From Nitrospinota bacterium (GTDB taxonomy: Bacteria > Nitrospinota_A > UBA7883 > JACRGQ01), in contig JACRGQ010000059.1 in NCBI GenBank assembly GCA_016217735.1, positions 5,208-69,207 on the forward strand: 64,000 nt of DNA. Direction: 5' to 3'. Made by a program: the position numbers and the translations under genes. The notes beneath the pieces are model-generated. The model did not search any database, was not told where the DNA came from, and saw only the letters and a program-made list of their open reading frames with translations. Below, piece by piece: positions 10,286-25,819 of this stretch (position 1 is its first letter; the number at the start of each line of letters is the position of its first letter).

Positions 10286-10933
10286 TTAAGCGAGAAATTG
10301 TAAGATTTTTTCGATAGTCTCGTCAAGGCTTAAATGGGAGTTGTCTATTTCAACAGCCCCGCGCGGAACCACCAAAGGTGAAACCAGCCGGCTGGAATCC
10401 TTGGCGTCGCGTTCAACTATATGTTTTGCAATCTCTTGCGCCTTTTCCGCCGGTTCCCCCGTTTGCAAGGCGCGCCGCTTGCCACGTTCGGCGGGGTTGG
10501 CGCTAAGGAAAAATTTATGGTCGGCGTTCGGAAAAACGACGCTGCCGGCGTCGCGTCCTTCCACAATCACCGTCTTGTGTTTTTGCGCGATGCCGCGCTG
10601 TTGCGCCACCATTTTTTCCCGCACGCCGGGGTGCGCCGAAACGGCGGATATGCTGGCGTCGATCTCGGGGGTGCGGATGGCGGCGGTAACCTCGCGTCCG
10701 TTGACAAAAACTTTTTGGCCGCCTTCCGCTTCCTGAAAATCGATGGCGATAGCGCCGGCAATGGCGTCCAGTTTCGCGGCGTCGGCGGGGTTCGTCCCGC
10801 TTTCCAGCGCCAGCAGCGTCACGGAGCGGTACATCGCGCCGGTATCGAGATACACCCCCCCCAGTTTTTTGGCCAGTGCGCGGGCGGTGGTGCTCTTGCC
10901 GCTCCCCGCCGGCCCGTCAAGCGTGATAATCAT
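10286..10933 (-). CDS. cmk: cytidylate kinase
   Basis: IITLDGPAGSGKST P-loop and the CMP-kinase family pattern. Lies immediately upstream of rpsA, the classic arrangement. Confidence 0.9.
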   Translation of the reverse strand: MIITLDGPAGSGKSTTARALAKKLGGVYLDTGAMYRSVTLLALESGTNPADAAKLDAIAGAIAIDFQEAEGGQKVFVNGREVTAAIRTPEIDASISAVSAHPGVREKMVAQQRGIAQKHKTVIVEGRDAGSVVFPNADHKFFLSANPAERGKRRALQTGEPAEKAQEIAKHIVERDAKDSSRLVSPLVVPRGAVEIDNSHLSLDETIEKILQFLA

Positions 10934-12318
10934 TTTTGCAATGCTTTCAATTCGATTTCAATCCAGTCTTGAGCTTTTTTCTCCGTTTTTTCAATTGCCA
11001 TTTCAACACCCTGCTTGGCGATACGAAGAAGATTTTTTGACAACGCTTTGGTGGCATACATTTTCGAGATTTTATTTTTAATATTTTCCTGAATGCTTAA
11101 GGACAATTCCGGCAGAATAATGCGCTTAAACTCATCATCGCTTATGGCCGCTAAGATTGTGCCTGAACATCCCTTCTTAAGCTGTAATTGCCCAACCACC
11201 GACTTGAGCAAAACAAGCAAGGTCTGGGAATTAATTCCATCTGATTTGATAACAAAGAAGCCCGTTGAACATAAAGCATTATCTAAATCATCCGCAATTA
11301 GGGCGATACTTGAAAGCGACCCCTCAATTGTCGAAACAATAACATCCCCGGAATTGACTTTACGTCTTGCCCGGGTTGGTAATTCTTTGCCTTGCGCCTC
11401 AATGAATCCATTAATGTTTCCGTTGGTAGATATGTTCGCAAGCTCGATATATTGATAGAGTTCATCATCCTTCGGCTGGAAATTTTTATCCTTAATCCTA
11501 ACAATTTCGCCCAAAGGTTTATAACCCTTTTTGTATTGTTTGATGCGGTGGACCACATCCTCATACATCGGCTGAAAATATTCAGCGTCGAGGCGATTGC
11601 TAGATTGAGCACTCGAAAAATTCTTGATAAAAGAAAGACGATGTCTCGGCTTCCAGCTTAAGAAACCAAGCTCGGCAATTAATGCGTTTTCTGCTTCTAT
11701 ATAAATTGCGTTAGCGGATTCCTGCTTTTTGTAAGCGGCGTAGACTATTTCCTCTATCATAGATTGAATAGTAGGAGCCAAAACAGGAATCTGGATGTCT
11801 CGGAATTTTGCAGGACTAAAATTCGACTGATTGCTAATCATCAAATTTTTTTCTATCTGTGCCCTGCCAACTCTGCAATTTAAATAAACAACCAATGTCG
11901 CAGAATTAATTATTTTTCTCTTGGGACGAACGCGAAATAGATATGATGCAAACGCATAATCATAATCTTTGGGAACTAGGGCTGATTTTCCAACCAACTT
12001 TGGATTGCCATTTGTCCGACAAATTAGAACATCGCCTTTTTTTAAAATTAAATTCCCATATGTTTCAGCATTGATTTTGTCGCAAAACTTTTCTGGCCTT
12101 TTTATAAACATACCGTCATATTCATTTAACCTCAGAATGGGGTAGCCGTTCCCGATTTCGTTAAGTTCTTCGGATGTGCCATATTGTACAAAATCAACGG
12201 CATCCTCTCCCGTTACAAAACTAGAATCAATTTGAGATTTATGACAATAATACTCTGCCTCTAATCTCCAGATTTTATGCCTCTTTATTTCTGAAAATGT
12301 AACTATTGCAAGCCTCAT
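10930..12318 (-). CDS. hsdS: type I restriction-modification specificity subunit HsdS, two target-recognition domains
   Basis: Two TRD halves and the conserved central/terminal helices. The ATG at 12318 overlaps the hsdM TGA (ATGA), indicating translational coupling. Visibly AT-rich. Confidence 0.8.
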   Translation of the reverse strand: MRLAIVTFSEIKRHKIWRLEAEYYCHKSQIDSSFVTGEDAVDFVQYGTSEELNEIGNGYPILRLNEYDGMFIKRPEKFCDKINAETYGNLILKKGDVLICRTNGNPKLVGKSALVPKDYDYAFASYLFRVRPKRKIINSATLVVYLNCRVGRAQIEKNLMISNQSNFSPAKFRDIQIPVLAPTIQSMIEEIVYAAYKKQESANAIYIEAENALIAELGFLSWKPRHRLSFIKNFSSAQSSNRLDAEYFQPMYEDVVHRIKQYKKGYKPLGEIVRIKDKNFQPKDDELYQYIELANISTNGNINGFIEAQGKELPTRARRKVNSGDVIVSTIEGSLSSIALIADDLDNALCSTGFFVIKSDGINSQTLLVLLKSVVGQLQLKKGCSGTILAAISDDEFKRIILPELSLSIQENIKNKISKMYATKALSKNLLRIAKQGVEMAIEKTEKKAQDWIEIELKALQK

Positions 12319-14379
12319 GCTCCATTCTTCCAAAAGCTCAAATCTTCCTTTTTCGCCCACTTAATAAATGCTTCCGCAATGCCGTCAGGCAATTCACTAC
12401 CATGATTGTGCAGATCATGGTCAACGATAAGATGGCCATATTTATCTAGCTTGGGCCCCCCCCCCAGAACCATTTTTGACATAAATATATTCGCCTGAAT
12501 TATTCTTGCCGGATTTTTCTGAAACACCAAAAAAAATGGGGTAATCGTCCTTTTTAGGGCACAGTTTATCGTCCCATTTTTGTAAAAATAGGACGCTTGT
12601 CTTTGTACCCGTGTGTGGTTTAAAAGTATTTACATGGAGTCCCACAACGGCCAAAATGCAGGCTTTTTCGGCTATGTATTTCCGGATTTCTTTGTCAGAG
12701 GAGTTATTAAATCGTCCTTGCGGCAACACAATTGCCAAACGTCCGCCGGGTTTAATAAAGTCAAGGTTGCGCTCGATAAAAAGAATGTCGCGCCCAACCT
12801 TTGATTTTGGCTTGTTGTTATTGTTATAGCCTAGTTCGTATTTATGAATGATGCGGGATTCTTTAATGTCCCCAGCAAATGGCGGATTTGCCATAAGGAT
12901 ATCGAAGTCAAACTCCTTATACGAGTTGGGCTCTTTCTTAAGGTCTTCCAAGCGCCTGAAACCGTTACCATAGGTATCGCGCCACTCAAGATTAGTAACT
13001 GTTTCATTCCAACGATCATAATCGAGCGTGTTGAGGTGAAGAACGTTTGTTTCCCCATCACCGGCAATAAGATTCAATGTACGCGCCACACGAACAACCT
13101 TTTCATCAAAATCAATGCCAAAGACCTTAAGAACGTCCTCTTTTTCTTCCTGCGAGATTTCAGTGTTTTCAAAGAGGTGTCCAGTAAGCTGAAAAATCGT
13201 GTGAACAGTAAAGCCGCATGATCCAGAGGCGGTATCAATCATATATTCTCCGGGCTTTGGATTTAGCATCTTCACGCACATGTCTATCACGTGCCGAGGC
13301 GTGAAATACTGGCCTTTTTCCCCTTTGGAGGACTTGCTGACCAGATATTCAAATGCTTCGTCTATAACCTGAAGATTGGAGTTGAAAAGCTTAACGTCTT
13401 GAAGGCTTGATACACAGACAGAGAGATGAGAGGGGGAAAGTTCGATCTTGCTTTCTTCAGGGAATACGCCGTGCCATTTCCTTTTTGCCTCATCAAATAA
13501 CCTCTGAATCTTCGACTTTAATTCACCTTCGGATTGTCCGGTATTCCTGAACTCAAGTACCCGGAAATCGCTTGTGTCTACATTTTTCAAAATCGCTTTT
13601 ACTTTTTCAAAATCGCCAATTTCTTCAACTTTCAGTTTACGTTTAATTGTTCGATCTATCATGACCTTGTCATCTTTACTTTTTGTTTCGTCGTGCAATT
13701 TTGTGAAGATAAGTTTAAAGACTTCTTCAAAGACGTCTACGCCCGCGTTAGCAAGGACTTCGTCTTCCATTTCTGTGATGATTGTCTTCAGGGATTTGCC
13801 TTCATTTGGAATTTTGTCCCTGACGATGAGGTCGCGCCATGTGAAACGTTCTTTTAAAATGTCCTCCAGAGTCTGGTCGGCTTTTGGAATATCGGTTATG
13901 TCTTCAAAGAAATTGGGGTCTTTGCGGTTGTAATGGGAAATTTGCCCGCCATTTGTCCAAACGCCGATCGGGGCGCCAGTCGCGTTGCAATATGACTTAA
14001 GCTGGCCCTTCCCATCCTTGAGTTTCGGCTTTTTGACTTCAACGATAATGTATTCAACGGTTGGCCTATCCTTATCAAAGATAATAATATCCGCCGATTT
14101 TGTTTCTCTTCCAAACTGAACAGGATGCTCAAAACGTATTCGTTTTTTTGGATATCCGTATTCATTTATGAGTCTTGCGGTAAAAAGCTGACGGACAATT
14201 TCTTCAGGCTTAAGTTGGATTAGCTTTTCACGGATAATACATTTTACGTAAGGTTTGCTTTTTTCGATCGCAATTTTTTTTTCTAGGATTTTTATATCCT
14301 CGCCTGAGAAAAGGGAAAGATTGTAGTTTGAATCTTTTAGAATCGAGTCGAGCGTAGCACGATTTTTTTCATTTATCAT
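12315..14379 (-). pseudogene. hsdM: type I R-M N6-adenine methyltransferase HsdM, frameshifted at a G10 tract. Phase-variable or inactivated.
   Basis: Contains the NPPF motif and AdoMet-binding blocks. The reading frame stops at 12442. The C-terminal 45 aa continue in another frame (ORF 12315-12530) directly after poly-C at 12456-12465. A tract of 9 G restores one ORF of about 688 aa. Confidence 0.8.
12456..12465. repeat. homopolymeric C10 on the + strand (G10 on the hsdM coding strand)
   Basis: Read directly: TTGGG-CCCCCCCCCC-AGAAC. Confidence 0.9.
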
Positions 14380-14403
14380 TTTGGCTACCTTTTTTATTCC
14401 AGA

Positions 14404-14817
14404 TCAATCAATCACATCCAAGGGCAAGCTTGAGCGCACCAGATGCCTCACTTTGCGGGCCAAATCAACGGCCTCTTCCGCTTCAACTCGGGTTATCGGC
14501 TCCCATTCACCGGGATAACGGGTTTCGATCGAATACCGGTTCAATGTCTGCAAAGGGAGTTCGTGGGGATTCATGCATCCCGCTTTTATCGCCAGATTCT
14601 TAAGTAAGATCAGATCATGCGTCTTGGGAAAATCCAGTGCGTTAAAAGCAAGAAGGCCCTTTAAATATTTTTCGGCGCATTGTTGGGCGTGGAAACAAAC
14701 GGTATCGAATGGACAATCGTCTTTCAGCGTTAGTGTATGTTCCGCCGTCCGGAGGTCATGCTCGGCCTTCTCAATCCACTGTCGAACAAGCCTTCCCTTG
14801 TCAGGCGGCGCGTTCAT
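14404..14817 (-). CDS. HEPN-domain protein (toxin partner of the MNT)
   Basis: IETRYPGEW HEPN signature. The internal ATG at 14817 overlaps the MNT gene by 17 nt. Confidence 0.7.
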   Translation of the reverse strand: MNAPPDKGRLVRQWIEKAEHDLRTAEHTLTLKDDCPFDTVCFHAQQCAEKYLKGLLAFNALDFPKTHDLILLKNLAIKAGCMNPHELPLQTLNRYSIETRYPGEWEPITRVEAEEAVDLARKVRHLVRSSLPLDVID

Positions 14818-15121
14818 ACAGGACTTTTCCCTCCTTGAGCGCGGGATAAATGATTGAGCCGGCAACATCACGGTATTTCTCAGCCTCTTCCGGCGTGACC
14901 ACAATCACATCCAGCGGCAACGTGCGATCCGCCAGGGCTAAATCGATCTCCGCCGTTTTTTTTCGCTTTGACCCCTCAACCCGCATGATCACCAACAGAT
15001 CCACGTCGCTATCCCTGCCAGGCGTTCCTTTGGCGTATGATCCGAAAAGGACGATCTTTTCGGGATGAAAGCGCTTTACAATCACTTCCGCCATTTTGCC
15101 TATGGCTTCCTGATCCGTCAT
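14801..15121 (-). CDS. minimal nucleotidyltransferase (MNT, Pol-beta superfamily) antitoxin partner
   Basis: The block LFGSYAKGTPGRDSDVDLLV carries the GS...DxD motif of the Pol-beta nucleotidyltransferase fold. Confidence 0.75.
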   Translation of the reverse strand: MTDQEAIGKMAEVIVKRFHPEKIVLFGSYAKGTPGRDSDVDLLVIMRVEGSKRKKTAEIDLALADRTLPLDVIVVTPEEAEKYRDVAGSIIYPALKEGKVLYERAA

Positions 15122-16927: not shown

Positions 16928-17974
16928 ATGTTGACGTTCCGCCTGCTCTTCATCCTCGTCGGGGCCGTGCTGGGCGGTTTTATAGGCCACTTGGGGGCCA
17001 GCGGCGTTTATTACACCCTGCGGCTCCTATCCATCTCCGAAGGGGCGCTTTTCGGCGCTGTTATCGCCGCGCTGGCGGTGGCCGCCGAGATGAAACTCCG
17101 CACGTTGAAACTCCGCTCCATCGCCGGCGCGGTATTCGGCATTTTCACGGCGCTCATCCTGGCGAACCTCCTCACCTACGCGCTGACCGGCCTTTCGCTC
17201 ACCCCTTCCACCGGAAACCGCATTCTCATTCTGATGGTGAACCTCACCGCCGCGTTTATCGGCGCCTCCGTCGGCCTGCGCATCATCGAGGAGGTGGATC
17301 TCACCATCATCAGCAAGATCATCCGGGGGAAATCGGATTTCGGCCTTTTGCCGAAAGTGCTCGACACCAGCGTGCTTATTGACGGCCGGATCGCCGACGT
17401 GGCGGAGACCGGTTTTATGGATGGAACCATCGTGGTTCCCGCCTTTGTGCTGGCCGAACTGCACCACATCGCCGACTCGCCGGACGACCTGAAAAAAACC
17501 CGCGGCCGCCGCGGCATCGAAGTGGTGCATCGCCTCCAGCAAAATGCGCTGTTCGACGTGCGGATAGTGGAAGAGGATTTTCCCCGCATAAAAGAGGTGG
17601 ACCACAAGCTGATAGAACTGTGCAAGAAGATTGACGGCAAGATCGTCACCAACGATTTCAACCTGAATAAACTGGCCGAGCTGCACGGCGTCGGCGTGGT
17701 GAACATCAACCTGCTTGCCACCTCCACGCGGCCGTTGCTGCTGCCGGGGGAAGAGCTTCCCTCCATGCTGGTGGTGAAGGAAGGCAAGGAACCGGGCCAG
17801 GGACTCGCCTATCTGGAAGACGGCACGATGGTGGTCGTGGATAACGCCCGGAAGCGGATCGGCCAGAAGGTGAACGTGCAGGTAACCTCCGTGCTGCAAA
17901 CCCCCACCGGACGGATGATCTTCGCGAAATTCATTTCGGAACCCGGCGCACCGGCCGTTGCCGAGAGGGAGTGA
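16928..17974 (+). CDS. PIN/TRAM-domain membrane protein (YacL-like)
   Basis: Four N-terminal TM helices, a PIN domain (LDTSVLIDGRI..), and a C-terminal TRAM-like beta domain. Sits upstream of ispD, as yacL does in Firmicutes. Confidence 0.75.
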   Translation: MLTFRLLFILVGAVLGGFIGHLGASGVYYTLRLLSISEGALFGAVIAALAVAAEMKLRTLKLRSIAGAVFGIFTALILANLLTYALTGLSLTPSTGNRILILMVNLTAAFIGASVGLRIIEEVDLTIISKIIRGKSDFGLLPKVLDTSVLIDGRIADVAETGFMDGTIVVPAFVLAELHHIADSPDDLKKTRGRRGIEVVHRLQQNALFDVRIVEEDFPRIKEVDHKLIELCKKIDGKIVTNDFNLNKLAELHGVGVVNINLLATSTRPLLLPGEELPSMLVVKEGKEPGQGLAYLEDGTMVVVDNARKRIGQKVNVQVTSVLQTPTGRMIFAKFISEPGAPAVAERE

Positions 17975-17981
17975 ACCGGCC

Positions 17982-18695
17982 GTGGGCGGCTCCCCCGTTG
18001 CGGCGGTAATCCCCGCCGCCGGATCCGGCAGCCGCATGGCCGCCGCCGTTCCCAAGCAGTTCATGGAGCTGAACGGGCATCCCCTGCTTGACTGGACGCT
18101 TGCCGCCATCGCGCGAGCGGATGAGATCGGATCGATCATTCTCGTGGTGCCGCCCGGCGATTTGCCGCACATGGCCGAAAAATATGTGGGGAATCCCCGC
18201 TGGCCGAAGGTGGCCCGCGCCGTCGCCGGCGGAGCCACACGCGCCGAATCGGTTTATAACGGCGTGCGGGCCGCCGGCGCCGAATGGATACTGGCGCACG
18301 ACGCGGCGCGCCCGTTCGTCACCCCCGCGCTGGTGCGCCGCACCGTCGAAGCCGCGTTGCGGCATGGCGCCGCCACCGCCGCGCTTCCCGCGCACGATAC
18401 GCTGAAAACGCGCGACGGCGATTTTTTGGGGGAAACGCTCGACCGCGCCGCGGTTTTGCACATACAGACGCCGCAGGTATTCCGCGCGGCGGATCTCCTC
18501 GCCGCGCACGAAAAGCTGCGGCATGAAGGAAAGGAATGGACCGACGAGACCTCCTTGCTGCAACAGGCGGGGATAAAGGTTGCGTGGGTGCCGGGCGAAG
18601 CGGCGAATATGAAGATAACCACGCCGGATGATTTCCGGCTGGCGCAAGTAATGGCGGAGCGGAGCCCTTTTGTGAAGGGCCCCGCCCGCGTATAG
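17982..18695 (+). CDS. ispD: 2-C-methyl-D-erythritol 4-phosphate cytidylyltransferase
   Basis: AVIPAAGSGSRM motif. GTG at 17982 follows a GAGGGAG RBS just after the upstream stop. Confidence 0.85.
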   Translation: MGGSPVAAVIPAAGSGSRMAAAVPKQFMELNGHPLLDWTLAAIARADEIGSIILVVPPGDLPHMAEKYVGNPRWPKVARAVAGGATRAESVYNGVRAAGAEWILAHDAARPFVTPALVRRTVEAALRHGAATAALPAHDTLKTRDGDFLGETLDRAAVLHIQTPQVFRAADLLAAHEKLRHEGKEWTDETSLLQQAGIKVAWVPGEAANMKITTPDDFRLAQVMAERSPFVKGPARV

Positions 18696-18764
18696 AAAGC
18701 CTCCTTGTTTAAGGCGCGCCGTTACGCGCCCCGCTTTCGCGGGGCGCGGTCTGCATCCGTAAAA

Positions 18765-19616
18765 TCAGCCAAGCAACTGCAACACGGTCTGCGGCACCAG
18801 GTTCGCCTGCGCCAAAATCGAGGTCGAAGCCTGCACCAGTATCTGGTTCCGGGTGAACTTCGAGATTTCCGTCGCGTAGTCCGCGTCGCGGATCTGCGAT
18901 TCGGCGGCGGTCAGGTTTTCCGCCGATACCGACAGGTTGGCCAGCGTATGCACCAGCCGGTTCTGCACGGCGCCGAGGCGGCCGCGGCCGTCCGTCACCT
19001 TTGTGATGGCGCTGTCGATATTCGCCAGCGAGTTCAAAGCGGACTGCGCGGTGAGCACGTTGGTGTTTTGCACCGCCAGGCCGGTGGTGGTGATGGCGGT
19101 CAGGTCGACCGCGGTGTTCAGGCTGAGCCGGTCGTTGCTGGTCGCGCGGATGCCGACCTGGATAACCACCGAAGAGGTGGCGGCGGAACTGAGCGATCCG
19201 TCAACCAGTTTTTGGCCGTTGAATTCCGTCACCGCCGAGATACGGTCGATTTCCGACTTGAGAGCCTGGAATTCGCGGTCTATCGTTCTGCGTTCGGTGC
19301 TGCCGACGGTGCCGGTGGCCGCCTGCGAGGCCAGTTCGCGCATACGCACGAGGATCGAGGACTGCTCTGAGAGCGCCCCTTCCGCCGTGTTGATGAGGCT
19401 GATGCCGTCATTGCCGTTGCGGGTAGCCTGGTTGAGCGAGCGGATCTGCGACCGCAGCCCTTCGGATATGGATAACCCGGCCGCGTCGTCCGCCGCCTTG
19501 TTTATCCGCAAACCGGAAGAGAGTTTTTCGAGCGAACTGCCCAACGCCGAGCTGTTCGTCGCCAAATTTCTTTGGGCATTAACCGAGAAAAGGTTGTTAT
19601 AAACACGTAAAGCCAT
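18765..19616 (-). CDS. fliC: flagellin, short form (283 aa)
   Basis: Conserved flagellin N-terminal block (ALRVYNNLFSVNAQRNL..LSSGLRIN.A.DDAAG) and C-terminal block (LGA.QNRL....NL.....NL..A.S.I.D.D.A.E....). The ATG is preceded by AAGGAGG. Confidence 0.85.
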   Translation of the reverse strand: MALRVYNNLFSVNAQRNLATNSSALGSSLEKLSSGLRINKAADDAAGLSISEGLRSQIRSLNQATRNGNDGISLINTAEGALSEQSSILVRMRELASQAATGTVGSTERRTIDREFQALKSEIDRISAVTEFNGQKLVDGSLSSAATSSVVIQVGIRATSNDRLSLNTAVDLTAITTTGLAVQNTNVLTAQSALNSLANIDSAITKVTDGRGRLGAVQNRLVHTLANLSVSAENLTAAESQIRDADYATEISKFTRNQILVQASTSILAQANLVPQTVLQLLG

Positions 19617-20280
19617 GATCGTATCCTCCTTGAAGAATCGGCTTCCTTGCCATGCCACCGCGGAACTTCCGCGTTCCGCCGAAAATCGGCGGCCGGACGC
19701 GCGTGGCGGCGCGCCCGCATCCCCAGCCACCCCAGCCGGGAATGTAGTGAAACGGTTTCAAAGGCTGTTGCTGGTCGGATTCCTCCTTTGGGGGCGAAGT
19801 CTTTGCGGACCCCACCCGGTTCCCACGTTTAAGATTTGCCAAGATAATCAGCGGTTCGCGCGGTGAGGTTTTTTGGAGAACGGACGGAGGAGAGGTGTAT
19901 CCGTTGATGGTTGTCACCCATCGGCGGAACACCGTACCCCCGGCGTTCTTGCCTTTGAAACCCTACGTTGCGAAACGCCAAATTTTTACCCCTTGGCGCT
20001 TCTCTACTTTTATCTAGATAACTTATCGACCCGGCAAAAAATTCCCATTACCCCTTTTTGGGGGTATTGGGGAAAAGCGTGCAGGAACTAAAGTTTTGCT
20101 TTTTTCAGCCGGGGGTGGGGGTGGGATTTCATTTCCCCGGCAGGATAGGCAACTTGTCCGCCTGTTGGCGCCACGCGCCAAGAAAGGCCGGCCTGCCGAT
20201 ATCACGCAGCCTGCGTGACCTGCCGGAAAAGGATTATAAATAAACGACGATAAAGTGCTTCTTAGTTCGCACAATCCTAC

Positions 20281-21288
20281 TTAACAGGTCTTAACGATAC
20301 GCCGTAGAAATTCCTCAAATGTTACACACCGATTAGGGGGAATTGCTGCTGCAATCCAGTTTTTCCCTCGGCCCGGTTTAATTGTCCCGTCCTTTTTTAA
20401 TGGCACCTTAAGATAAACTGGCTCATCCAAAAAGAAATAAGTATATTCTTTCGCTCCTTTATCCTTCTTTACTCCATCCATCCAACGCTCAACACACTCT
20501 GGAGCCTTATTCCCCTTTTCTTCTGCAAAACGCATTAAATCAGTTTTAAATTGACCAATATTTCGGGGAGCGACTGTTAATATTCCCAATATGCGTGCGA
20601 CACAGGGTATTCCCTCACCCTTTTCCTGCTTTGCGCTCCTTGTAAAATGAGGTGCAAAATATTGTGGATTTCCAAAAATAACATTTCTTCGATAAACCAA
20701 ACACTCATAGAACTTACGAACTTCTTCGGCTCTTCCCAAGTCTTGAACTAATATCTCTTTGCGCGACCTCATTGCAAATCCTCTCAATGCAAAACGAAAA
20801 AAATTTCCTGCTATTTGATTGTCCCAAAATGATTTTTCATCAAATGCACTTAAAACGTCACTCCATGTTAAGTCAACCACTCGAATATTCCCGGACGAGG
20901 ACTTGCGGGAACTGTTTTCCTGAGCAATAAAACATAGGATTCTATGTTTAGCATCTTTTTCGAAAGCAGATAAATATTGGGTTTTTTGCTTGCCAATACG
21001 ATTCTTCCTTACCTTACACTCAATAATTACTTGAAATGTTTTTTTTCGGTAAATATTTATATCTATTCTTCCCTCCTTTACGACCTTTTCAGTAGAAATT
21101 TCGACCTGTTGAAAATTACCTAAGTTGAACTTAACCTTCAAGCCGATAAAGCGTAAAAACTTATACAGAAACTTCGGCTCATGCCCTAATGTATACGCAA
21201 AAGCTTTAGATAAACCAACCTCATCGCTTCCCAAGAGATCAAAATTCGTTAAATGCGAACGATCGTAGCCAGCATTTTTTATGATCAT
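20281..21288 (-). CDS. hypothetical protein with N-terminal PD-(D/E)xK nuclease-like motif, in an AT-rich single-gene insertion
   Basis: A Glu, then GRIDINIY (Asp), then QVIIECKV (E-x-K) matches the restriction-endonuclease-like core. Strongly AT-rich relative to flanks. Confidence 0.55.
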   Translation of the reverse strand: MIIKNAGYDRSHLTNFDLLGSDEVGLSKAFAYTLGHEPKFLYKFLRFIGLKVKFNLGNFQQVEISTEKVVKEGRIDINIYRKKTFQVIIECKVRKNRIGKQKTQYLSAFEKDAKHRILCFIAQENSSRKSSSGNIRVVDLTWSDVLSAFDEKSFWDNQIAGNFFRFALRGFAMRSRKEILVQDLGRAEEVRKFYECLVYRRNVIFGNPQYFAPHFTRSAKQEKGEGIPCVARILGILTVAPRNIGQFKTDLMRFAEEKGNKAPECVERWMDGVKKDKGAKEYTYFFLDEPVYLKVPLKKDGTIKPGRGKNWIAAAIPPNRCVTFEEFLRRIVKTC

Positions 21289-21328
21289 CCAGTATTTCCT
21301 TAATGGCCACTATTCAAGCCCTTGCCTA

Positions 21329-22606
<1,278 letters not shown>

Positions 22607-23536: not shown

Positions 23537-25819
23537 CTATTCCCGCTCCGCCTTTTGGTAATCGCCGATTTTCTTTTCGATCTCGCCCAGCAGGAAGCGG
23601 AGCTCGGTGATCTGCCCGGAGGCCTTGTCGATGATCTTTTCCTCGGAGGCGAGCACCTTGATCTTGGTCTTGATGTCTTCGGCGAGGAGGTTGAGATCGT
23701 TGAGCCGCTGTTCGGTGCGGTTGATAAGCGCCATGCGGGAGTTGAGGACGTCGATTTTGGTTTCGGCCTCGCCCATGATGGAGGAGAGGGACCTGATCTT
23801 GTCCGATATTTCGCCGAACGACTCCTGGTGCTTGGCGATCTTCCGTTCCTGCGCGCGAAGGTCTTCTATCTGCGAGGTGAGGACGAGAATGTCTTCCTGG
23901 ACTTTCTTGATGAGCGCCTCTTCCTTGCCGATCTGGTCGGCCTGGCGGGAGGTCTTTTCCATCATGTTGCCGAGCATGTTGAGCCGTTTTTCGGTCTCGA
24001 TGAGGAGTTCCTCTTCGTCGCGGACGCTTCCCAGCCGTTTTTCCAGGTCGGCCAGCCGCGCCTGGATGCCGCCCAGCTTCTCTTCGGTGCCCGCGAGCTG
24101 CTGGCTCCGGGAGGCGAGGCTGCTTATCTGGCCGTCCACCTTGTCGACCGCCGGCATGAGTTCTTCCTTGGCTTTGATGATTCCCTGCAGGAGGTTGTTC
24201 CCTTCCCGCACGTCTTCAAGCTTGCCCGACACGCTTTCCTCGATGACGACCAGCTTGCTGCCCAGCATCTGGAGGCGGCGCTCCTGGGCGTCTATGACGC
24301 TCTTCTCGCGGGTGATGTCCAGTATCTTCTCTTCCACCTGGCGGGTGATTTCGCGCAGGTCTTCCACTTTCTTGTCGAGGTTTTCGAGGAACTCGACCTT
24401 CTTGTTGATCCGGTCCACCTTCAGCGTGGCGTCTTCGATGTAGTAGTCGAGGCCGTCCAGCTTCTTCTCCAGCTTCTCGACGAGGGCCTTGCGCTGGAGC
24501 TGGTTTTCCATCTTCACATCGAGGTTGATGACGGTGGAAGAGAGGGTATTGACCTTTTTCTCCACCTGGTCGACGATGTTGCGGCGCGCCGAAAGGTCGT
24601 TCATCTGGGCGTTGAGCACTTCGTGCATGCCGCCCATCTTCTTGAGCTTCACTTCTATTTCTTCGCTGATCTTGATATCCTCGCGGAAGCGCTGGAGCTT
24701 GAGTTCGAGGTCGTCCGCCTCCTGCTGGAAGCGGGCCATTTTTTCGCGGGCGGACTCCACGGCCCCCATGTCATCCTTGAGTATCTTCATCTTGTTGCCG
24801 ATGGAATCGATGAGGAAGACGTTGAGCTTGTTGATCTTCTCCTCGGTGGCGGCCACCACGTCCTTGTCTTCGCGCACGCGGGTGACATTCACTTCCAGCT
24901 CGCTGTTCATTTCCTCAAGCTGCTTGAGCTTGGCGCCGATGCGCTTGATCATGTCTTCTTTCATCATGATGTTGCCGGTTTCCACGCGCAACGCGTTCAT
25001 GTCCTTGATCAGTTGGGCCACGTCGCGGTTCATCTGGGTCACCAGCGCGTTCTGGCGGAGCAGGTCTTCGCTGCTTGCCTGCAGGCGGCCGATGGTCTGC
25101 CCGATTTTCTCGATGTCCTGCCCGTAGCCGTCGATTTCTTCCTTCTGGCGGGCGATGCGGCCGATCTTGTCTTCCAGTTCGCGGCTGATGCCCTGCAAAC
25201 GGCCGATCTGTTCGTCCGAGGTTTTGAGCAGCCCCTTGAAGGTTTCGATGTCCTGCATCCGGTCGCCCACTTTGTCCAGCATCTCCTCGAGGCGGACGAT
25301 GCCCTTTTCGGTTTGCTTGACCAGCTTGTTCTCTTCGCCAAGCTTCTTGACCTTGGCTTCCATGTCCCAGATCAGGATGTTGAGCTTGCCGGCCTCTTCG
25401 TTGGCTTTTTCCACCACGAGCCGCTGCTGGTTCAGCGCCTTCACCTTGCTTTTCACATGTTCGGCGATCAGCGAGACCTCGTCCACCGCCATGCGGTGCT
25501 CATGCAGGCGGCCGGCGCTTTCTTCCACGCCGGAGGCGATGTCTTTCACGCGGATTTCGAGGTTGCGCAGTTCTTCGAATTTCCCCCCCATCTTGTCGGC
25601 GAATTCGCTGAAGAAGGGGATTTTGCTTTCGAGGTTCTTCATCGTGGTGACGTTCTGGTTCACCTTGTCGATGTTGTTCTGGATGTATTCGACGAGAAGG
25701 TTGAGGCTCTTGCGCTGCGCGTCGGCCTCTTTCACCAGATCGGCAAAGCGGTTAATGTCTTCCCGCGTGAGCTGCGCGTTCCCCTGCGCGGCCGTCTTTT
25801 CCTGTTCCATCGGCAACAA
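23537..25819 (-). CDS. long coiled-coil protein (about 760 aa), hypothetical
   Basis: Uninterrupted heptad-like K/E/L/I/Q-rich sequence with no recognisable enzymatic motif. The opposite-strand ORF (1047 aa) is low-complexity Ala/Gly/Val-rich and was rejected. Confidence 0.6.
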   Translation of the reverse strand: MLPMEQEKTAAQGNAQLTREDINRFADLVKEADAQRKSLNLLVEYIQNNIDKVNQNVTTMKNLESKIPFFSEFADKMGGKFEELRNLEIRVKDIASGVEESAGRLHEHRMAVDEVSLIAEHVKSKVKALNQQRLVVEKANEEAGKLNILIWDMEAKVKKLGEENKLVKQTEKGIVRLEEMLDKVGDRMQDIETFKGLLKTSDEQIGRLQGISRELEDKIGRIARQKEEIDGYGQDIEKIGQTIGRLQASSEDLLRQNALVTQMNRDVAQLIKDMNALRVETGNIMMKEDMIKRIGAKLKQLEEMNSELEVNVTRVREDKDVVAATEEKINKLNVFLIDSIGNKMKILKDDMGAVESAREKMARFQQEADDLELKLQRFREDIKISEEIEVKLKKMGGMHEVLNAQMNDLSARRNIVDQVEKKVNTLSSTVINLDVKMENQLQRKALVEKLEKKLDGLDYYIEDATLKVDRINKKVEFLENLDKKVEDLREITRQVEEKILDITREKSVIDAQERRLQMLGSKLVVIEESVSGKLEDVREGNNLLQGIIKAKEELMPAVDKVDGQISSLASRSQQLAGTEEKLGGIQARLADLEKRLGSVRDEEELLIETEKRLNMLGNMMEKTSRQADQIGKEEALIKKVQEDILVLTSQIEDLRAQERKIAKHQESFGEISDKIRSLSSIMGEAETKIDVLNSRMALINRTEQRLNDLNLLAEDIKTKIKVLASEEKIIDKASGQITELRFLLGEIEKKIGDYQKAERE

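Follow-up and report, generated by a model that had tools for sequence, protein, structure and literature searches.

What is the function of a lone, AT-rich gene that lies between a hemL-like gene and a flagellin gene in the genome of a Nitrospinota bacterium, and where did it come from? The stretch of DNA analysed here, the window, comprises 64,000 nucleotides of this genome (assembly GCA_016217735.1, contig JACRGQ010000059.1, positions 5,208 to 69,207). The gene in question encodes a 335-residue protein that is identical to HZA03_09675 from a metagenome-assembled genome of a Nitrospinae bacterium, where it is annotated "hypothetical protein". We find that this protein joins an N-terminal nuclease domain of the PD-(D/E)xK family to a C-terminal domain with a predicted PUA-like fold, and we give about even probability to its being a solitary, horizontally acquired, modification-dependent (type IV-like) restriction endonuclease with the domain order of PvuRts1I and an anti-phage role. 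An initial annotation had proposed a solitary nuclease-based defence gene, either Shedu-like or type IV restriction-like, or else a domesticated mobile-element nuclease. The type IV-like option is favoured here because the C-terminal half is predicted to form a PUA-like barrel and no cognate methyltransferase accompanies the gene.

In its N-terminal half, the protein belongs to the PD-(D/E)xK nuclease family, and the catalytic motif is intact. Pfam PDDEXK_4 (PF14281) matches residues 39-150 with 31.3 bits (E 2.4e-7), above the gathering score of 22.3, and the same model is matched by 42 of the 43 homologues in our alignment (43-55% identity; best E 1.2e-10), while HSDR_N_2, PDDEXK_9, NucS_C and Mrr_cat give weaker, sub-threshold matches. 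The pattern E ... GRIDINIY ... QVIIECK, in which the initial annotation had recognised a catalytic core, corresponds to E67, D76 (in GRIDIN), and E90-C-K92 (in IIECK), whose acidic and lysine residues are invariant in the 43 homologues, as are E23, Q101, and Y105. The structure prediction that had been proposed as a check of this fold is in agreement with the assignment: in the full-length AlphaFold2 model, whose mean predicted local distance difference test (pLDDT) score is 85.4, the N-terminal half forms an alpha-beta-beta-beta-alpha-beta core with the catalytic residues in their canonical places, D76 on core strand 2 (residues 73-81) and E90 and K92 on strand 3 (residues 85-93). Foldseek returns weak fold matches of this half to NucS/EndoMS and SfsA. 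The window protein aligns over its full length with homologues of about 330 residues and has every invariant residue. We predict that the nuclease domain is Mg2+-dependent and that its substrate is DNA. A superfamily census of 2012 gives the function of PF14281 as "Unknown" (PMC3424549).

The C-terminal half (residues 170-335) is the better conserved of the two, with a mean column identity of 59%, compared to 55% in the nuclease domain. Its invariant residues are E178, Q182, D183, E189, Y199, R201, G206, P208, Y210, F211, and P213 in the first part, followed by W269, K299, R307-G308-K309, W311, N319, and R320. Modelled alone, the domain reaches a pLDDT of 87.8 and a predicted template modelling score (pTM) of 0.83, and its secondary structure elements are ordered b1(179-184)-a(187-196)-b2-b3-b4-aa-b5-b6-b7, which fits the strand-helix-strand order of the PUA/ASCH core (PMC7641849). 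When the models are compared with the PDB using Foldseek, the top matches are all PUA-superfamily barrels, for the full-length and domain models alike. The best match of the domain is ZmASCH (E 1e-4, probability 1.0, template modelling (TM) score 0.39-0.56), and the second best is the YTH-like N-terminal domain of S. marinus McrB (6n0s, E 8e-4, TM score 0.44-0.47). Further matches include the ASCH domain of TRIP4, which was solved with double-stranded DNA, PH0355, af2351, EF3133/DUF984, the PUA-like N-terminal domain of ATP sulfurylase, and YTH domains. The viral structure library BFVD independently gives ASCH, EVE, and ProFAR-isomerase-like proteins. From these models, the C-terminal domain is probably a PUA-like barrel, that is, a fold of modified-base readers.

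At the level of sequence, no motif had been recognised in this half, and our searches bear that out. Pfam gives no match to the C-terminal domain: at E <= 1, the profiles PF04266 (ASCH), PF01878 (EVE), PF04146 (YTH), and PF02182 (SRA) match none of the 43 family members, and even at E <= 10 they do not match the window protein. Searches of PDB sequences with the single sequence, a full-length profile, and a C-domain profile return only noise, and NCBIfam and PHROGs give nothing meaningful. The GxKxxxxR motif, a hallmark of the ASCH family (PMC5615036), is not conserved in register: the family consensus in this region, which lies upstream of strand 1, is G-Y-K-M-R-x-Q-K, with the G and the first K being variable, and the window protein has G-F-A-M-R-S-R-K. 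Judged by its sequence, the C-terminal domain is a previously undescribed and rare family. When 1.84 billion cluster representatives were searched exhaustively with a profile, the domain was recovered in only 130 proteins, 60 of which join it to the nuclease.

The remaining architectures indicate that the C-terminal domain is an independent module. About 25 cluster representatives are complete proteins of 150-170 residues that begin at the domain boundary, and one such stand-alone gene was verified inside a contig (P0156, at 2017-2502 of locus L094). In a single case (P0166), the domain lies behind a different, non-nuclease N-terminus of winged-helix appearance. The stand-alone forms retain the KEILxQD, YRR, and PLYFAPYFT motifs and lack the GRGKNWIAA loop, which is invariant in the nuclease fusions. 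Since both the stand-alone and the winged-helix forms are devoid of this loop, it may mediate the coupling of the C-terminal domain to the nuclease.

The nearest architectural precedents are PvuRts1I and AbaSI, type IV enzymes dependent on 5-hydroxymethylcytosine (5hmC) or its glucosylated form (g5hmC). Like the window protein as predicted here, they are single polypeptides of about 300-330 residues with an N-terminal PD-(D/E)xK nuclease and a C-terminal reader of the PUA superfamily, and they have no methyltransferase partner (PMC12707154). This would be a likeness in the way of working, not in membership: the reader is an SRA domain in these enzymes, whereas the putative reader of the window protein rather resembles ASCH and YTH domains, and its nuclease is of the PDDEXK_4 type. 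Searches with phmmer and with a profile gave no PDB sequence match to PvuRts1I or AbaSI, and neither is among the top 50 Foldseek matches. Other fusions of a PUA-superfamily domain and a nuclease have been described by Lutz et al. 2019, namely the EVE-HNH enzymes TspA15I and VcaM4I, the PUA-DUF3427-PD-(D/E)xK enzyme YenY4I, and ScoA3V (PMC6765204). These fusions, together with the MspJI family, resemble the window protein, as predicted, in a modular composition of PUA-like sensor and nuclease, and their genes are usually not located beside methyltransferases. Nevertheless, their sensor is N-terminal and their nuclease C-terminal, the reverse of the order in the window protein, and sequence comparison identifies their sensors as EVE, SRA, or YTH domains, whereas the C-terminal domain of the window protein matches no hidden Markov model.

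Two other comparisons concern the fold of the C-terminal domain. The N-terminal domain of S. marinus McrB, which it resembles, reads DNA modifications in a type IV system, but McrBC is a multi-subunit, GTPase-driven system with a separate nuclease, McrC, whereas the window protein has neither an AAA+/GTPase domain nor a partner. The ASCH proteins ZmASCH, YqfB, TRIP4, and BapA provide the best fold matches, a beta-barrel flanked by helices; the C-terminal domain differs from them in having no ASCH profile match and in being fused to a PD-(D/E)xK nuclease.

Modification-dependent enzymes are modular fusions of a sensor and a nuclease without methyltransferases (PMC6765204, PMC12191111, PMC12707154), and Lutz et al. 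took the absence of a methyltransferase partner as an argument for modification dependence (PMC6765204). For the window protein, the nuclease is identified by Pfam, and a putative sensor is suggested by the predicted PUA-like fold, with no match to a sequence profile. No cognate protective methyltransferase was found in the 67 loci of the family that we compared; the methyltransferases near family members belong to complete, separate restriction-modification systems.

Phage genomes often carry modified bases, and modification-dependent nucleases are a major bacterial answer to phages that disguise their DNA. If the window protein is such an enzyme, its C-terminal barrel would attach to DNA and examine a modified base that has been flipped out, and the N-terminal Mg2+-dependent domain would then cut the DNA nearby. 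Because only modified DNA would be attacked, no protective methyltransferase would be needed, and the system could be transferred between genomes as a single gene. MspJI, AbaSI, and PvuRts1I are standard reagents for mapping epigenetic marks, and the present family, compact (330 residues), self-contained, intact, and equipped with a reader-like domain, is a candidate source of a new modification specificity. It also provides a concrete hypothesis for the role of PDDEXK_4, a Pfam family that has stood without a listed function since 2012.

We do not find the relationship to Shedu that the initial annotation had considered. Neither the Pfam model of the SduA family (DUF4263, PF14082) nor the PADLOC SduA model matches at E <= 10, and in one locus (L010) a true SduA_C gene occurs as a separate neighbour of the family gene. 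Membership in PDC-S26, a candidate system in PADLOC, was also considered and rejected: residues 37-134 of the window protein match model positions 64-167 of 389 with 24 bits, and the C-terminal halves remain unmatched. The similarity to the PDC-S26 models (389-413 positions) is a weak nuclease likeness over about 100 residues in the N-terminal third, at 14-24 bits when divergent relatives are included.

The family is small and scattered. Only 228 clusters among 5.8 billion contain this nuclease, as full-length proteins of about 330 residues that are 43-55% identical, and the homologues come from at least five phyla, those 45-55% identical to the window protein being from Nitrospinae, Cloacimonetes, Campylobacterota, Bacteroidota, and Spirochaetota. 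Named members occur in Nitrospinae, Cloacimonetes, Sulfurovum, Bacteroidales, Treponema, and Lacinutrix; searches of 72,556 plasmids, 50,697 phage genomes, and the IMG/VR viral contigs brought up no member. Flanking sequence of 2 kb or more is available for 59 loci, and in 58 of these the gene has a lower G+C content than its surroundings, with a median difference of -5.9 GC points.

The window gene shows the same contrast, as the initial annotation had stated when describing a low-G+C, 335-residue open reading frame (ORF) between flagellin and hemL, and Pfam confirms both flanking genes. Its G+C content is 0.382, and 0.333 at third codon positions (GC3), compared to 0.52-0.67 and 0.67-0.85, respectively, in the neighbouring genes for CarD, PIN-TRAM, IspD, flagellin, HemL, and MTAP. 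With 1008-bp windows averaging 0.584 (standard deviation 0.057), the gene lies about 3.5 standard deviations lower, and the 64 kb contain a single further tract that is equally AT-rich. The closest HemL proteins in species-representative genomes are 60-67% identical, and a single Nitrospinota locus was informative for comparison, that of UBA9963 (L089), a distant relative. There, MTAP is followed by hemL, and hemL immediately by PIN-TRAM and CarD in convergent orientation, with no nuclease gene, ispD, or flagellin gene beside hemL. The GC3 contrast and the absence of the gene beside hemL in UBA9963 support a horizontal acquisition, in which the nuclease gene was inserted between hemL and flagellin, as the initial annotation had supposed.

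A comparison of 17958-19616 in the window with 7266-8310 in L089 shows that ispD and the lone flagellin gene intervene between hemL and PIN-TRAM in the window only. The flagellin gene has a host-like GC3 of 0.81, and no other flagellar gene was seen adjacent to it.

The family gene travels without a fixed companion. An all-against-all comparison of 370 neighbouring ORFs from the 67 loci yields no neighbour family present in more than four loci, hence no conserved partner gene, consistent with the proposed description as solitary. In most of the 10 loci whose context was annotated with Pfam, the neighbourhoods are defence islands; only the window and the Sulfurovum locus (L001) have no adjacent defence gene. 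Family genes are found next to SIR2_2 and DUF4238 (L003), RelB/ParE pairs (L007), type III restriction-modification, an SNF2 helicase, an integrase, and GmrSD (L012), a CAP12-type TIR protein and a HEPN/NTase pair (L095), and an integrase, a Zeta toxin, DUF2971, and RhuM (L097). L010 is particularly rich, with an integrase, an EcoRI-type methylase, a GmrSD-HNH protein, Fic, a reverse transcriptase, and toxin-antitoxin pairs in addition to the SduA_C gene mentioned above. When PADLOC models are applied at E <= 1e-10, 148 neighbours of family genes match 240 models, including type I, II, and III methyltransferases and MADS components, compared to 46 models, mostly generic kinases or AAA proteins, for 148 control neighbours of hemL, an approximate enrichment since model families rather than proteins are counted.

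Two loci deserve closer description. In Lacinutrix sp. (L002, 1-8993), HsdR, HsdM, HsdS, an AAA_15/21 ATPase of 645 residues, a 329-residue protein, and the family gene follow one another with overlapping stop and start codons. The 329-residue protein has no Pfam match, and we judge it HNH-like by its CxxC...H motif. This arrangement suggests one transcript joining a type I restriction-modification system, a Septu-like pair, and the family nuclease. In L096 (302-8996), DUF1156 (COG1743 methylase-like), SIR2_2, and DUF499 lie directly upstream of the family gene on the same strand. This locus is reminiscent of the COG1743-DUF499-SNF2/nuclease-EVE system that Bell et al. described in 2020, in which a nuclease plus an EVE reader occupies the position corresponding to that of the family gene. 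The PADLOC models "mad3" and "mad8" (MADS) also match among the family neighbours, which hints that the family can act as an accessory module of MADS-like systems.

The same evidence has to be weighed under other explanations. The protein may be a defence nuclease whose action is independent of DNA modification, with the barrel serving as a nucleic-acid-binding or ligand-sensing module that switches on the nuclease during infection, as in an abortive-infection-type effector; it might, for instance, respond to a free modified nucleotide or a phage product, or act on RNA. PUA and ASCH domains classically bind RNA, ZmASCH cleaves single-stranded RNA, and free m6-dAMP is reported to trigger a defence module with a PUA domain (bioRxiv 10.64898/2026.01.15.699771); moreover, family genes adjoin abortive-infection-type genes (TIR, SIR2, and HEPN), and the C-terminal domain also exists as a stand-alone protein. 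Nevertheless, a constitutive solitary nuclease with no inhibitor or partner would have to keep itself under tight control, and no antitoxin-like gene recurs among the neighbours, while the nearest architectural precedents are type IV enzymes, and we regard this explanation as rather unlikely. A different role for the barrel, which we consider improbable, would be catalytic: an ASCH-like hydrolase or glycosylase would remove a phage base modification, and the nuclease would cut at the exposed or abasic site. Enzymes of this fold exist, since YqfB is an N4-acylcytosine amidohydrolase and BapA, which belongs to a defence operon and resembles ZmASCH, strips g5hmC DNA of its glucose. The stronger conservation of the C-terminal domain relative to the nuclease, and the invariance of its polar residues E178, Q182, D183, E189, R201, K299, R307, K309, N319, and R320, are in line with an active site; however, a base-flipping reader pocket equally predicts invariant polar and aromatic residues, and in sequence the domain resembles none of the characterised ASCH enzymes.

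We consider a function outside defence highly improbable, be it that of a housekeeping repair or recombination nuclease or that of a domesticated or selfish mobile-element nuclease, such as a homing endonuclease or a transposon remnant. PD-(D/E)xK nucleases have many roles, the immediate neighbours in the window and in the Sulfurovum locus are not defence genes, and the window gene, lying shortly downstream of hemL, may be co-transcribed with it. Against this stand the sporadic distribution across phyla, the foreign composition in nearly all loci, the absence of the gene from the syntenic site in UBA9963, and the enrichment of defence functions among neighbouring genes. A mobile-element origin, which the initial annotation had listed together with a search for flanking direct repeats, finds no trace at the window locus: no direct or inverted repeats bracket the gene, only short chance matches being found, no tRNA, integrase, or transposase adjoins it (the nearest tRNA is about 10 kb off), and no copies occur on the phages, plasmids, and viral contigs searched. 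Modification-dependent restriction is not our only reading, but it is the preferred one. A further claim, that the C-terminal domain founds a new PUA-like clade with its own chemistry or ligand, is in our view unlikely; it might then read a hitherto unread hypermodified phage base, catalyze deglycosylation or excision before the cut, or sense a free modified nucleotide. If true, the family would represent a single-gene defence with a new mechanism, and might yield an enzyme of use in mapping DNA modifications.

The coordinates of the gene, its domains, and the surrounding features are given in Table 1.

Table 1. Features of the nuclease locus and of the second AT-rich tract, in positions of the window.
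Feature	Position	Strand	Basis or remark
Two-domain protein, complete coding sequence	20281..21288	minus	335 aa + stop, ATG start
N-terminal PD-(D/E)xK nuclease domain, aa 1-169	20782..21288	minus	Pfam PDDEXK_4
Catalytic motif codons E67 ... D76 ... E90-x-K92	21013..21090	minus	columns invariant in 43 sequences
C-terminal domain, aa 170-335, predicted PUA-like/ASCH-like beta-barrel	20284..20781	minus	structure model + Foldseek
Shine-Dalgarno-like AAGGAA, 7 nt 5' of ATG	21296..21301	minus	read from sequence
Non-coding tract, 664 bp, gene stop to flagellin start	19617..20280	no strand	sequence
Flagellin	18765-19616	minus	Pfam
Class-III aminotransferase, HemL-like	21329-22606	minus	Pfam
Methylase_S specificity subunit	10930-12360	minus	Pfam
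645-aa fusion HSDR_N_2 (PD-(D/E)xK) + N6_Mtase/Eco57I	12442-14379	minus	Pfam
HEPN protein	14404-14904	minus	Pfam
NTP_transf_2 nucleotidyltransferase	14801-15121	minus	Pfam

The gap between the hemL stop codon and the start of the nuclease gene is just 40 nt, and a scan for promoters and terminators gave nothing above shuffle expectation, and none between the two genes. The nuclease gene may be co-transcribed with hemL.

On the other side of the gene lies an unusually long spacer. The initial annotation had described a non-coding tract of mixed composition here, which is indeed present, but its bounds of 19740-20280 (550 bp) have to be corrected, the flagellin gene starting at an internal ATG at 19616. 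The spacer comprises about 50 nt of AT-rich sequence beside the nuclease stop codon and GC-rich hairpins beyond, for example 20137-20151 pairing with 20212-20226, and its fold z-score is only -2.1. It gives no Rfam match at E <= 1, has no second copy in the window or in the collected family loci, and contains no ORF above 115 residues. The spacer probably represents the 3' end of the imported segment, the promoter and leader of the flagellin gene, or, most likely, both.

Elsewhere in the window, a 760-residue ORF on the minus strand (23537-25819), rich in E/K/L repeats and of coiled-coil appearance, coincides with a strong, sustained plus-strand AT skew of -0.3 to -0.46.

The second AT-rich tract of the window (10930-15121, minus strand, G+C about 0.38) contains four genes and is wedged between cmk/rpsA and tyrA. 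The Methylase_S and HSDR_N_2/N6_Mtase genes look like a BcgI-type (type IIB/IIG) restriction-modification arrangement. The window would thus harbour two separate defence-like acquisitions within 10 kb, with core genes in between, and the nuclease gene is one of these two AT-rich arrivals in the host genome, both of which lie among core genes.
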